16,572 bases of DNA from Candidatus Hermodarchaeota archaeon (GCA_016840065.1 JAEOTB010000052.1:1-16572); one strand, 5' to 3'; counted from the first letter of the stretch, positions 2,247-5,252 are shown. Numbers and translations are program-made. The notes: generated from the sequence alone by a model not told the origin.

Positions 2247-3797
2247 ATGACTGAAGAAGCTTCTAGCCGTCGCCAACAATCAGAGGCATTGAAACGTCAA
2301 ATTGATGCTCTCGCAATGGATCTAATCTCAGCCCTAGACCTGCTAACCAGGGACTTGCAGCGTAGCCTACTCAGCCTGGCGGACCTTGTTGAAGAGAGGA
2401 TGGACGCCATTGGCTTCGGAAGGCTTTCTGGTCCAGTTGTGCATAGTATTCAAGAGGGAGTTAAAACAGAGGCGAAGCGTTTTGGCGAGAAGGCTCGTGA
2501 GAAGATTAAGGAGATTATGGAGAAGAAGGCAGAAATTGCTGGGTCTGCAGATGTGCTGGGTGCTTGGAAACCGATGACCGCTGAGGAGCGGGGAGCCCGT
2601 CAACGTCAACTCCAGGGGGAAATTGAAGCGAGAGAGAAGTCTCAGAAGGAACTAGAAGCCGAGTTGGCAGAGGCGCGAGTGCAACTATTAGAATTGCAAA
2701 GCAGAATTCAAGCTCTATCAACTCAAGATGGTCAGAGAATCGATACTCTAGTTTCAACCGCAGAAGAACTTCAAGAACAGGTTAGAGGGCTTGAAGCACA
2801 ACTAGAAGAGGAGAGAAGGAACGCTAGTAAGATCACAGAAGAACGGGATTATGCCCAAGAGCAGCTCCAACCCCTTGAGGCCCATTTACAGCGAGCAAGA
2901 GAACGAATCACCGTTTTGGAAGCAGACCTGTTGTTAACTCGTGAGCGGGTCACCACACTAGAGAAAGAGGGAACACAAGCCTCCTCCTTATCCGAGCAAA
3001 TAGGAGAATTACAGGCTGAACGCCAACGAATGAGTTCAGAGCTAGCCACCTCCCAGGAGGAGAAACAGCTTCTAGAAAGACAGGTCGCAGAATTACAGAG
3101 AGATTTAGAAGAGGTTAGACAACAACTTGTCACAACAGAGCAGACAGGTGGTGAATGGGGAGCTCGTGTCGCAGAGCTTGAAAAGCAGGTCCAAGAACTG
3201 ACCGAGTTGAGAGAGACTCATCTTCAACGCATAGCGGAGCTGGAAGCGCAGTTAGCAGACGCCTTGAGAAGATTGGATGAAATCCAAGCAAGTGATAGAG
3301 AAGCTCAGTTGATGGAGGAGAAAGCTAAGCTAGAGGAAGTCAATAGGCTTCTTAAAGCCGAAAATGTTCAGCTGGAACAGGAACTAGAACAAACTCAGCA
3401 AAGATTGGTTGAAACGCAGGAACAAATTGTTGAACTAGCCGAGGCACGAGAGCGGTTAAGGTGGATGGAAAGCCGTGAAAAAGTTCGCAACATTCTGCTA
3501 CAGAAGAATCAACTGTATACTATCCTGACGCGACTGGCAAGCCTAATAATGGAGGGCAAATATATCTGCTCATCTACTGAACTCGGTTACAGTTCCAGTT
3601 CAGGTATCTCCCTTGCAGCCTGGCTAGACAGACACTTCCTAGAATTAGAAGAGGATGGACTAGTAATCATCCATCGCCAAGCTGGCGGAGGAATGCCATC
3701 AGCTTCCATCGAAGTGACTGAGAAAGGACGTCAAATCTTCGAAGAAGCGATGGAAACCGAGGCCGTGACTAGCCCTGCGAAAACAGCTGAACCATAG
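2247..3797 (+). CDS. Long coiled-coil protein with a C-terminal winged-helix-like domain
   Basis: About 300 residues of E/Q/L/R-rich heptads (RVAELEKQVQEL, RIAELEAQL, QVAELQRDL). The C-terminus ...LDRHFLELEEDGLVIIH...SIEVTEKGRQIFEE matches the wHTH 'L..GLV...LTEKG' pattern. Start ATG 2238 or 2247 is more plausible than 2079. Confidence 0.8.
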   Translation: MTEEASSRRQQSEALKRQIDALAMDLISALDLLTRDLQRSLLSLADLVEERMDAIGFGRLSGPVVHSIQEGVKTEAKRFGEKAREKIKEIMEKKAEIAGSADVLGAWKPMTAEERGARQRQLQGEIEAREKSQKELEAELAEARVQLLELQSRIQALSTQDGQRIDTLVSTAEELQEQVRGLEAQLEEERRNASKITEERDYAQEQLQPLEAHLQRARERITVLEADLLLTRERVTTLEKEGTQASSLSEQIGELQAERQRMSSELATSQEEKQLLERQVAELQRDLEEVRQQLVTTEQTGGEWGARVAELEKQVQELTELRETHLQRIAELEAQLADALRRLDEIQASDREAQLMEEKAKLEEVNRLLKAENVQLEQELEQTQQRLVETQEQIVELAEARERLRWMESREKVRNILLQKNQLYTILTRLASLIMEGKYICSSTELGYSSSSGISLAAWLDRHFLELEEDGLVIIHRQAGGGMPSASIEVTEKGRQIFEEAMETEAVTSPAKTAEP

Positions 3798-3897
3798 TTC
3801 TCAAATCAATAAAAAGGGGTTCGCAGCTGTGGGTGCTTTACGCTCATCCATACCACAGATATGGATATCAAGTCCAACAAGCCAGGTAGTACTGGGG

Positions 3898-3905
3898 TTA
3901 ATATA
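3898..3905 (+). promoter_or_regulatory. Putative archaeal TATA box (TTAATATA) for the downstream non-coding RNA
   Basis: TATA-like element ending 22 nt before the first base (3928) of the omega-RNA-like scaffold, the spacing expected for an archaeal transcription start. Confidence 0.55.
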
Positions 3906-3927
3906 GCGTTTTGAGAAGATCTTCTTT

Positions 3928-4098
3928 GTCGCCGCTAGTTGGGCGGAGACCCTAAACGCCTGTCTAGAGACGGGAGGTTACAGCTCCTCAAGGAGTAGTG
4001 CCCGTTGATGAAGCAGGAACCAAACACCAACAAGGACCCCTCGTCCTATTTGAGTAAGTTTTGGACAACGGTTTCCCAGTGTCTGAGCGAGACACTGG
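3928..4098 (+). ncRNA. Orphan IS607-type TnpB omega-RNA (reRNA)-like scaffold (3928-4071) plus 3' putative guide/hairpin (4072-4098)
   Basis: Recalled IS607 tnpB 3'-end hallmarks: GTCGCCGCTAGTTGGGCGGAGACCCTAAACGCCTGT...GATGAAGCAGGAACC...GTAAGTTTTGGACAACGG. The vestigial frame reads VAASWAETLNACLETGGY, like TnpB C-terminal tails. Visible helices: CCGCT/GGCGG, CCTG/CAGG, GACGGG/CCCGTT with a GA..GAT-GA K-turn, GCTCC/GGAGT, AGGAC/GTCCT, and a loop GTTG(3938-41):CAAC(4066-69) pseudoknot. Confidence 0.7.
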
Positions 4099-4121
4099 CT
4101 ACTTTTCTTTCCCTTTTGTTT
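4076..4121 (+). terminator. Perfect 9-bp hairpin followed by a T-rich tract
   Basis: CCAGTGTCT(4076-84)-GAGCG-AGACACTGG(4090-98), then CTACTTTTCTTTCCCTTTTGTTT. Confidence 0.6.
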
Positions 4122-4168
4122 GCTTATAGGTGATGAGGTGAGTAGTGTATGGGCATCCCTTCACAGAG

Positions 4169-4200
4169 TTTATATCCACTCCCTCGAATAAATCAGGTGA
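4169..4200 (+). promoter_or_regulatory. TATA box (TTTATAT) and AGGTGA SD of the ThiF/MoeB gene
   Basis: TTTATAT at 4169-4175, AGGTGA at 4195-4200, ATG at 4209. Confidence 0.5.
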
Positions 4201-4208
4201 AATCAGTA

Positions 4209-5252
4209 ATGGGTTTAAAGCGTAACACAAGATACAGCAGGTTCACAGTACTCTCTGATGTTGGAGAAGAGGGGTTACATCGTTTACGTCAGGCTAGGGT
4301 TGCTGTTGTGGGGGTAGGAGGGCTCGGATGTGTTTCGGCGCTACAGCTAGCTTCGCTTGGTATTGGTGTGCTACGCATAGTTGACAGAGACATTGTTGAA
4401 ATCTCCAACCTTCAGCGTCAACACCTATACACCGATGAAAGTGTTGGACTCCCTAAAGTCGAGGCAGCTCAGCAAAGACTAGAGAAGCAGAACCCTGACA
4501 TTACTGTGGAAGCTATGGCGCTGTCAGTCACTGAAACAACAGCAGAGCGAATCGTAGAGGGGATGGATATCATAATTGATGGATTAGATCGCTTCGCACC
4601 TAGATACGCCTTGAATCGTGCTTGTGTGAAACAAAAGATACCATATGTTTTCGCAGGCGCACTAGCAGCCTCTGGCAACATGACAACCATAGTACCTGGG
4701 GAAACCCCTTGCCTAGAGTGCTTCTTAGGAGATGTTGATGACGAACAACCTACTTGTGCGACTGTGGGAATCTACCCTACAATTCTTGGGGTTATTGGGA
4801 ATCTGCAGGTTCATGAAGCTCTGCGTCTAATCCTCGGAAGGCCACTACAACTTGCTAATAGGCTTCTCTACTTCAACATCGAGACCCTAGACTTTCACCT
4901 GATTCCAATCTCCATCAACAAGGATTGCCCAGTCTGTGGGGACAATACTGAAGGGAAAGAACTACAGACGGATTTGGATGTTACTGTGACTGAACTGTGT
5001 GATGACCAAACCTTCCTTGTCCATGCACGAGTTCCCGAGGCAATCGATATTGGACGAGCATCGAAGATTCTCAAGAAACATTACAAGATTATCAGCAAGA
5101 GCGCACTTGGCATTCAAATTCAGTTTACAGACAAGATACAAGTCAGTGTTGTTGGTGAGGGGAACATCTTGGTGAAAGGTGTTTCTTCCTCAGAAGAAGC
5201 TGAGGCGATTTACCACCAAATAATCGATTTACTCCGTGAAGCTAACCACTAG
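4209..5252 (+). CDS. moeB: ThiF/MoeB/HesA family E1-like adenylyltransferase with C-terminal extension
   Basis: RYSR, VAVVGVGGLG, DRDIVEISNLQRQHLY, PKVEAA, Zn ligands CLEC and CPVC, catalytic-Cys region PTCATVGI. Start ATG 4209 follows an AGGTGA SD. moeB versus thiF/ubaA specificity is not resolvable. Confidence 0.92.
   Translation: MGLKRNTRYSRFTVLSDVGEEGLHRLRQARVAVVGVGGLGCVSALQLASLGIGVLRIVDRDIVEISNLQRQHLYTDESVGLPKVEAAQQRLEKQNPDITVEAMALSVTETTAERIVEGMDIIIDGLDRFAPRYALNRACVKQKIPYVFAGALAASGNMTTIVPGETPCLECFLGDVDDEQPTCATVGIYPTILGVIGNLQVHEALRLILGRPLQLANRLLYFNIETLDFHLIPISINKDCPVCGDNTEGKELQTDLDVTVTELCDDQTFLVHARVPEAIDIGRASKILKKHYKIISKSALGIQIQFTDKIQVSVVGEGNILVKGVSSSEEAEAIYHQIIDLLREANH

Follow-up and report, generated by a model that had tools for sequence, protein, structure and literature searches.

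The question raised by this locus is how a guide RNA of the TnpB type comes to stand by itself, with no nuclease gene beside it. The window, a stretch of 16,572 nucleotides (nt) from a Candidatus Hermodarchaeota archaeon (GCA_016840065.1, JAEOTB010000052.1:1-16572), contains a gap of 351 nt, bounded by a 572-amino-acid (aa) open reading frame (ORF) with its end at 3797 and by a ThiF-family gene. Into this gap the original prediction, made from the sequence of the window alone, placed a stand-alone IS607-type TnpB omega-RNA gene with its own TATA promoter and terminator, acting in trans and possibly domesticated by its host. It is suggested here that positions 3820-4071 are a 252-base-pair (bp) protein-less derivative of an IS607-type transposon, in which the promoter of the transposon left end (LE) is fused to the omega-RNA scaffold and TnpB is used in trans. 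We give this reading a probability of about 0.8.

Comparisons were made between the host genome (G000; 2.59 Mb in 131 contigs, 84% complete) and the family to which it belongs, a set of 19 genomes (G000-G018) in which G001, G002 and G003 are congeners of the host. By protein similarity the closest genomes are Hermodarchaeota metagenome-assembled genomes, in keeping with the earlier description of the host as Asgard-like. These assemblies are 72-91% complete and repeats assemble poorly in them, so that the absence of tnpA and the copy ratios reported below are provisional.

The omega-RNA scaffold and its conserved structure

The plus-strand sequence from 3928 to 4071, with the terminal sequence ...GGACAACGG and the last bases ACGG, is a repeat in its genome, where eight matching scaffold copies are found. 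It shares 75-87% identity with five other full-scaffold copies, and two further fragments match it in part. For three of the eight copies (one on C110, two on C17) the scaffold coincides in part with the 3' end of a complete ORF of 409-436 aa, and HTH_OrfB_IS605, OrfB_IS605 and Cas12f1-like_TNB domains identify these ORFs as TnpB. The window scaffold is 78-81% identical to the 3' ends of these three tnpB genes, and the similarity includes the coding-derived part, with the frame VAASWAETLNA. In every copy it ends at the same ...ACGG, and beyond that point the sequences are unrelated. A covariance model built from 17 tnpB-linked scaffold ends only, from which the window and all stand-alone copies had been excluded, matched 3928-4071 over positions 1-143 of its 143 with a score of 148.5 bits (E 1e-33). 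No tnpB ORF lies upstream of the scaffold, and all that is still readable of the gene is a remnant of 26 codons from the TnpB C-terminus. On the basis of this homology, 3928-4071 is an intact TnpB omega-RNA scaffold without an adjacent nuclease gene. The identity first assigned to the RNA is thus confirmed, and the further copies for which a search had been proposed, each followed by a different sequence after the right end (RE), do exist. All the individual features that had been listed (the TATA-like octamer, the scaffold, the GUUG and CAAC sequences, the G-A bases, and the hairpin with its T-rich tract) are present where they had been placed. The parts of the scaffold are as follows.

3928..4071, plus strand: TnpB omega-RNA scaffold and transposon right end, 144 nt, defined by covariance-model match and covariation
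3928-3950, plus strand: P1 hairpin of the scaffold
3959-3962/4014-4017, plus strand: long-range stem of the scaffold
3967-68 / 4007-11, plus strand: kink-turn (K-turn)-like loop of the scaffold
3969-3974/4001-4006, plus strand: inner stem of the scaffold, with apical stem
4020-4064, plus strand: 3' domain of the scaffold

Analysis of 35 non-identical scaffolds, taken from the host genome, 12 related genomes and one more distant Asgard chromosome, gave a consensus fold of 34 pairs in six helices. Compensatory double changes occur at 13 of the 34 pairs (among them a change from G-C to A-U seen in 11 sequences and one from A-U to G-C seen in 13), and these are informative because part of the structure lies within the TnpB coding region of the full-length copies. 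At most one in 500 column shuffles reached any of the observed measures. Slid controls yielded 2-8 compensatory pairs, and when the partners were slid by one to three columns pairing fell from 92% to 33-51%. It is from the alignment that the structural support comes, folding of the single sequence being unexceptional (z -0.9), with unremarkable z-scores on both strands. The nested helices drawn in the original prediction therefore stand through their covariation. The K-turn that it placed among them stands as far as its signature bases are concerned: the G-A dinucleotides at 3967-68 and 4010-11 (the latter within GAU-GA, 4007-11) surround a GACGGG/CCCGUU stem, and G3967, A3968, G4010 and A4011 are invariant in all 35 copies, so that for the fold itself the bases of the loop are compatible with a predicted K-turn. 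As for a putative pseudoknot between the GUUG loop (3938-3941) and CAAC (4066-4069), the two are complementary in 98.6% of cells and nearly invariant, with no compensatory change. Because its pairs are almost invariant, covariation is silent on this pseudoknot, either for or against.

The same loop invites a different view of the RNA. Around its invariant G-A bases are motifs like box D (CUGA) and box C (AUGAUG), such as might belong to some other archaeal K-turn RNA (box C/D, H/ACA or another L7Ae-binding RNA) that merely resembles the 3' end of tnpB. We find this hardly credible, since the homology with tnpB 3' ends runs from end to end, takes in sequence derived from coding and stops at the transposon end in every copy. 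Furthermore, Rfam, with families that include RAGATH-18, HEARO and the C/D and H/ACA RNAs, returned no match at gathering thresholds on the whole window, nor at E values up to 10 on 3780-4160. A search for tRNA and tmRNA also found none.

Some scaffold-related sequences in the host genome are altered. Two degraded 3' scaffold fragments lie at C17:6690-6796 and C32:8142-8253 (41 and 35 bits, respectively), with no upstream ORF. One copy (L006:1482-1624, equivalent to C69:27840-27982), in which the 5' hairpin has been exchanged for unrelated sequence, scores 127 bits with the model and sits 50-70 nt 3' of a gene for a 343-aa protein of the actin family (Pfam Actin, E 2e-33).

Element boundaries and the left-end promoter

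Comparison with the congeners was informative in defining the limits of the element. In G001, G002 and G003 the ThiF-family gene directly neighbours the upstream gene and the orthologous site is empty in all three; the intergenic sequence reads ...AAGGGG and continues directly into TTTCC(G/C/T)AGTGTCTGA..., which contains the ThiF-family GTG start. What the congeners lack is the 252 bp from 3820 to 4071, comprising the left end and the scaffold with the right end; the insertion took place in this lineage only, at a GG located 7 nt upstream of that GTG. The presence of GGTT at both 3818-3821 and 4070-4073 leaves the boundary ambiguous by up to 2 nt in each direction.

3810..3819, plus strand: left flank, ending in GGGG (resembling a target-adjacent motif (TAM), or the GG core of the target), collinear with the congener empty sites up to G3819
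3820..3927, plus strand: left end, 108 nt, starting TTCGCAGCTG..., absent from the three congeners
3846-3852/3860-3866, plus strand: 7-bp hairpin of the left end
3885-3905, plus strand: conserved left-end motif, present upstream of tnpB in C110 and C17b and in all mini copies
3898..3905, plus strand: TATA box TTAATATA of the left-end promoter, 22 nt before G3928
4070..4071, plus strand: terminal GG of the right end (IS607-type core dinucleotide), placed by the stop in homology and by empty-site comparisons

The left end has counterparts in complete transposons. Its start, TTCGCAGCTG..., matches the start of the left end of a full-length G001 element, the boundary of which is set by an empty site (L078 against C86), and its motif GGTAGTAC...TTAATATA matches the region upstream of tnpB in the full-length copies C110 and C17b. 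The possibility that the start of the left end is a diverged duplicate of the target was considered and rejected, as the same TTCnCAGCTGTKGGTG begins a full-length element at an unrelated insertion that was itself validated by an empty site. The architecture of the window element (left-end motif, TATA box, about 21 nt, then T|GTCGCC into the scaffold) is repeated on C60 and at five sites in G001 (C123, C402, C147, C128 and C384), and the junction of left end to scaffold is common to these seven copies in two genomes. As the same junction and architecture occur at unrelated sites, a single deletion derivative appears to have spread. Clean empty sites were found elsewhere for another mini copy (L058 against C123) and for the full-length copy (L078 against C86), and the flanks of these other validated insertions end in AAGGGG and GAGGG. 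By these sequence comparisons the element is a 252-bp, protein-less and non-autonomous mini insertion sequence (mini-IS) that is mobile, multi-copy and insertion-polymorphic, and its insertion here is younger than the split from the three congeners.

Two of the other insertions have unusual surroundings. On either side of the C60 mini-element, the second of the host genome, lie diverged copies of a unit of about 45-50 nt, a terminator hairpin with T-tract (L002:1385-1425 and L002:1669-1715), of which G001 and G003 have a single copy; between the right end of the mini-element and the second hairpin unit are 17 nt, and the ACAAACGG at their end looks like another right-end tip. On G001 C12, 174 nt of foreign DNA (L077:2163-2336) lie just outside the left end of a full-length element and are homologous to the end of a gene at G000 C9:8105-8277, and, when compared with the empty site on G000 C9, a duplication of about 12 nt encloses the complete insert. 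From its sequence this arrangement looks like copying together with donor flank, not clean transposition.

The promoter assigned to the RNA by the original prediction is present in the sense that a TATA box lies at start-site distance from the scaffold, but it is the left-end promoter of the transposon itself and not that of a separate gene. Its sequence, TTAA(A/T)AT, is invariant in all seven mini copies while the adjacent spacer varies, and it is present in the left ends of full-length elements. A similar arrangement is found in a sister genus, where about half of the sampled scaffold copies have no TnpB ORF. In 11 stand-alone copies from this genus a TATA sequence (TTTTTATA, CTATAAAA and similar) precedes the same GTCGCC start by 20-26 nt, and the upstream sequences are of at least two further types which cannot be aligned with the left-end type of the window; each of them resembles the region upstream of tnpB in the full-length elements of that genus. 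The sister-genus fusions could represent either independent deletions or exchanges of left ends. The recurrence of the TATA-to-scaffold layout suggests selection for direct transcription of the omega-RNA. That an element should be trimmed at the 5' edge of the scaffold had been thought unlikely to result from random decay, and this argument holds well, given the junction shared by seven copies in two genomes and the same first bases placed 20-26 nt after a TATA sequence behind left ends that do not align.

A look for RNA runs containing the locus found none. Three runs of metagenomic DNA contigs from one marine-sediment study were also compared with the window, and they attest its presence together with contig breaks caused by the repeat. 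The stretch 3460-3956 is spanned by contigs of two marine-sediment samples, and in none of the three runs was a joint across the whole element found. In runs X1 and X2, from the source marine-sediment metagenomes, contig depth over window positions 3911-3957 rises from about 9 to about 170 where the scaffold starts, and 3927/3928 is the end point of at least ten contigs that differ in their upstream sequence, which is in some cases TATA-like. The jump in depth and the varied ends therefore point to many more copies with the same 5' boundary in the community.

Transposon type, partners and mode of action

Assignment of the element to the IS607 type is supported by its relatives and by its junctions, as had been proposed. 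Homologues of the TnpBs at 48-57% protein identity occur in Atabeyarchaeia and Jordarchaeum and, among Chloroflexi, in Anaerolineales and Ktedonobacter, and in these relatives a Resolvase ORF of 195-221 aa (one also with MerR) ends at the start of tnpB, which is the IS607 layout. The tnpB 3' ends of these serine-recombinase relatives match the covariance model at 46-63 bits, the Atabeyarchaeia end being one of the sequences on which the model was trained. At the three junctions checked against empty sites (the window, L078 and L058), left flanks end in GGG(G) and right ends in ACGG, giving a repeated GG, and insertion has taken place at a GG target with no long target duplication; the TAM preference is read from a handful of such flanks. 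A Y1_Tnp match was absent from the host genome. The only Y1 TnpA of the family (L070, G014 C208:1-2307) is divergent to a 379-aa TnpB-like ORF and belongs to a separate IS605-type element; it was rejected as the transposase of the mini-element, the TnpB that it adjoins being unrelated (35% identity over 46 residues).

Potential partners for the RNA are encoded in the same genome. A search with the Pfam model found exactly three TnpB-family genes, 77-78% identical to one another. In all three, residues D190, E274 and D356 align with the catalytic D191, E278 and D361 of ISDra2 TnpB, and the four zinc-finger cysteines are present. The original prediction had called for either a TnpB encoded elsewhere or a nuclease-dead, TldR-like protein. 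For the first alternative there are three intact copies; the second finds no counterpart, as the D-E-D residues are kept in 3/3 and no nuclease-dead TnpB homologue was seen in the genome, which is 84% complete.

The sequence that follows the right end is where the guide would be encoded, and it has a history of its own.

4072..4095, plus strand: guide-encoding position, equal to the ancestral target DNA, with 23/24 bases identical to the G002 empty site
4096..4228, plus strand: filler specific to the window, absent from the congeners, part of the context and not of the element
4102-4125, plus strand: T-rich tract within the filler, a possible omega-RNA terminator
4123-4130, plus strand: TATA-like CTTATAGG within the filler
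4149 and 4209, plus strand: new ATG starts of the ThiF-family gene, within the filler

Positions 4072-4095 consist of 7 nt of the old leader, the old GTG start (4079-4081) and the first ThiF-family codons. The ancestral sequence resumes at 4072, and therefore the guide corresponds to the old target. A 9-bp hairpin (4076-4098) precedes the T-rich tract. This hairpin had been taken for an evolved terminator, which can no longer be maintained, since the same GTGTCT...AGACAC repeat lies at the start of the gene in the congeners. Exactly 24 nt separate the right end from the filler, which is about 130 nt long and stands in place of the first ThiF-family codons. The filler has ACAC at both edges (4092-4095 and 4225-4228), and no homologue of 4096-4228 was found in the 19 genomes (the host and 18 others). 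TnpB of ISDra2 cuts 15-21 bp from its TAM (PMC8612924), and it is a matter of speculation that the filler could be the repair scar of a self-targeting event, its left breakpoint being near an ISDra2-type cut distance.

The position of the guide bears directly on whether the RNA has been domesticated, whether in the manner of TldR or otherwise, for instance to regulate the adjacent ThiF-family gene. The locus has features which might be expected of such a host-adopted guide: the RNA is equipped with a promoter of its own and lacks a nuclease gene, it is directly upstream of a gene whose start region is the encoded guide, and among the family loci sampled stand-alone copies are about as common as tnpB-linked ones, on the provisional ratios. 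Against this, the orthologous site is empty in 3/3 congeners, and the family is a multi-copy mini-IS at unrelated sites with a different guide at each, driven by the left-end promoter of the transposon. The genome offers the guide no second match at one mismatch or fewer besides the locus itself, and matches with two or three mismatches never follow the GGG motif. The sequence where the ThiF-family gene now starts (4209-4232) has drifted away from that of the guide, all three TnpBs keep D-E-D, and no other TnpB-family gene was found. Domestication in any form is in our view very improbable, and this part of the original prediction is not upheld.

We prefer to see in 3820-4071 a mini-element that depends on TnpB supplied by other copies. 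An internal deletion would have removed the tnpB 5' untranslated region and nearly the whole gene, bringing the left end, and with it the archaeal TATA promoter of the element, up against the scaffold's first base. With the TATA box about 22 nt upstream, the RNA would begin at 3928 or close to it and would consist of the 144-nt scaffold and, copied from position 4072 and beyond, the guide; its end would probably lie in the T-rich tract (4102-4125). The three full-length copies could supply the TnpB that loads this RNA in trans, and the complex may recognise and cleave the unoccupied allele, that is GGGG followed by the guide-matching sequence, whereas the occupied site would be protected because ACGG replaces the TAM there. 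Recombination induced by the break, with the occupied copy as partner, might retain or copy the mini-element and so amount to homing; retention or copying of this kind has been demonstrated for bacterial TnpB elements (10.1101/2023.03.14.532601; 10.1101/2023.11.20.567912). Transposition to new sites would need the serine recombinase TnpA, again in trans.

Several observations weigh against this proposal. No serine or Y1 transposase of the element was found in its own and 18 related genomes, and current mobility is left unexplained, as no transposase is detected despite insertion polymorphism between species. Cross-compatibility of scaffold and TnpB is assumed, the three TnpBs having scaffolds of their own that are 78-81% identical to that of the window. 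The first 20 positions of the guide partly pair into the ancestral hairpin, and with the rearrangement at 4096-4228 the exactly matching empty allele may be gone from the population. Finally, the window copy keeps 33 of the 34 consensus pairs, and the one that it has lost is the otherwise invariant C4027-G4053, broken by an A at 4053 that is unique to it (G in the other 34 scaffolds); this could mark an early stage of decay of the window copy.

Taken further, such points would make the element an inert relic, a dead deletion derivative that is not transcribed, loaded or mobile and whose structure simply reflects descent from functional copies. The lack of TnpA in the 19 genomes, the pair-breaking change at 4053, the rearranged flanking DNA and the degraded scaffold fragments on C17 and C32 are all in agreement with this. 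However, the mini copies are only 77-90% identical to each other, and at this divergence of 10-23% wobble and compensatory changes have still preserved 32-34 of the 34 pairs. In 7/7 copies an invariant TATA box adjoins a variable spacer, the promoter-to-scaffold layout recurs with unrelated left ends, and the insertion is younger than the split from the three congeners. An inert relic is thus unlikely, and the trans-acting mini-element is retained as the better account. A layout that recurs across left-end types and a structure that is kept in diverged copies argue, as patterns in the sequences, that expression of the guide alone has been selected.

It may also be asked what such modules could become. 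In Hermodarchaeota, promoter-fused modules consisting of the omega-RNA only may have arisen several times from different IS607-type left ends. We put forward, as a doubtful and tentative suggestion, that they could form a self-propagating "guide-only" layer which spreads by TnpB breaks and recombinational copying or, alternatively, an early step towards a multi-guide use of one nuclease resembling a CRISPR array. They persist in genomes without a detectable transposase and are about as numerous as tnpB-linked scaffolds among the loci sampled. Hints of guide-only spread may be seen in the filler that begins 24 bp after the right end, the duplication of about 50 bp around C60 and the 174 bp of foreign DNA at another copy.

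Relationship to known TnpB systems

Eukaryotic Fanzor2 has been proposed to derive from the TnpBs of IS607 elements. In light of that proposal, examples from Asgard archaea hold some evolutionary interest, and nothing in this study bears directly on the link. The system is also a small one, made up of one TnpB, one 252-bp element and one target.

At the protein level, the closest solved natural TnpB to the three partners is that of ISDra2 (PDB 8BF8/8EXA/8H1J; PMC8612924), at E 1e-63. It has in common with them the catalytic triad and a C-terminal peptide, ...LVAA..(D/E)TLNA, that overlaps the 5' hairpin of the scaffold. ISDra2 differs in being an IS605 element with a Y1 TnpA and a TTGAT TAM, and the comparison with it was one of proteins. 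That the nearest solved protein is IS605-derived agrees with the finding that association with transposases is polyphyletic within TnpB clades (PMC10691335). TldRs, which are nuclease-dead TnpB repressors with fixed guides (bioRxiv 10.1101/2023.11.30.569447), also have a TnpB-type guide RNA separated from transposition. Their RuvC is inactivated, and both their locus and their host target are conserved; the window element shares none of these properties.

In its junctions the element resembles the Clostridium botulinum IStron (bioRxiv 10.1101/2023.11.20.567912). For that IS607 element the target or TAM is TGGG, with GG strictly required, and the scaffold ends in UCGG. Both have a GG core at the two junctions, a guide that is the 3' flank, and a G-rich TAM-like left flank (TGGG in the IStron and GGGG in the window); both scaffolds end in NCGG (UCGG and ACGG, respectively), so that TAM and right end differ at position -3. 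In relatives of the window family, moreover, a serine recombinase abuts tnpB. Unlike the IStron, the window element contains no tnpA, tnpB or group I intron and has an archaeal host, and its TAM is read from few flanks.

Guide-only derivatives have precedents. Palindrome-associated transposable element (PATE)-like minimal elements "often encode" omega-RNAs that are used by the TnpB of other copies (Meers et al., bioRxiv 10.1101/2023.03.14.532601), and those of the IS200/IS605 type in Geobacillus stearothermophilus are likewise protein-less and multi-copy within a genome, with both the left and the right end of a tnpB transposon retained. They differ in having a Y1 TnpA, single-strand hairpin ends and a TTGAT-type TAM, whereas the window element has a GG core, a serine recombinase in its relatives and no TnpA detectable in the host family. 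Stand-alone omega-RNAs that have evidently been mobilised, and that work in trans with compatible effectors, are also known from bacteria, their role being described as unknown (PMC10691335). These OMEGA (obligate mobile element-guided activity) examples of Altae-Tran et al. 2021, in the summary given by PMC10691335, consist like the present element of a scaffold and transposon end without an effector or transposase gene, share a genome with effector-encoding copies and are expected to act in trans. The phenomenon itself, with mobilised stand-alone omega-RNAs and omega-RNA-bearing PATEs already described, is not new. What distinguishes the window element from the OMEGA examples, as summarised there, is its Asgard-archaeal host, its IS607-linked TnpB family and an explicit promoter fusion, with the TATA box 22 nt before the scaffold, its trans activity being predicted. 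The novelty thus lies in an archaeal, IS607-linked case for which both the promoter fusion and the empty site are resolved: a TnpB transposon of an Asgard archaeon reduced to a guide-RNA-only form, with defined boundaries and identifiable candidate partners in trans.

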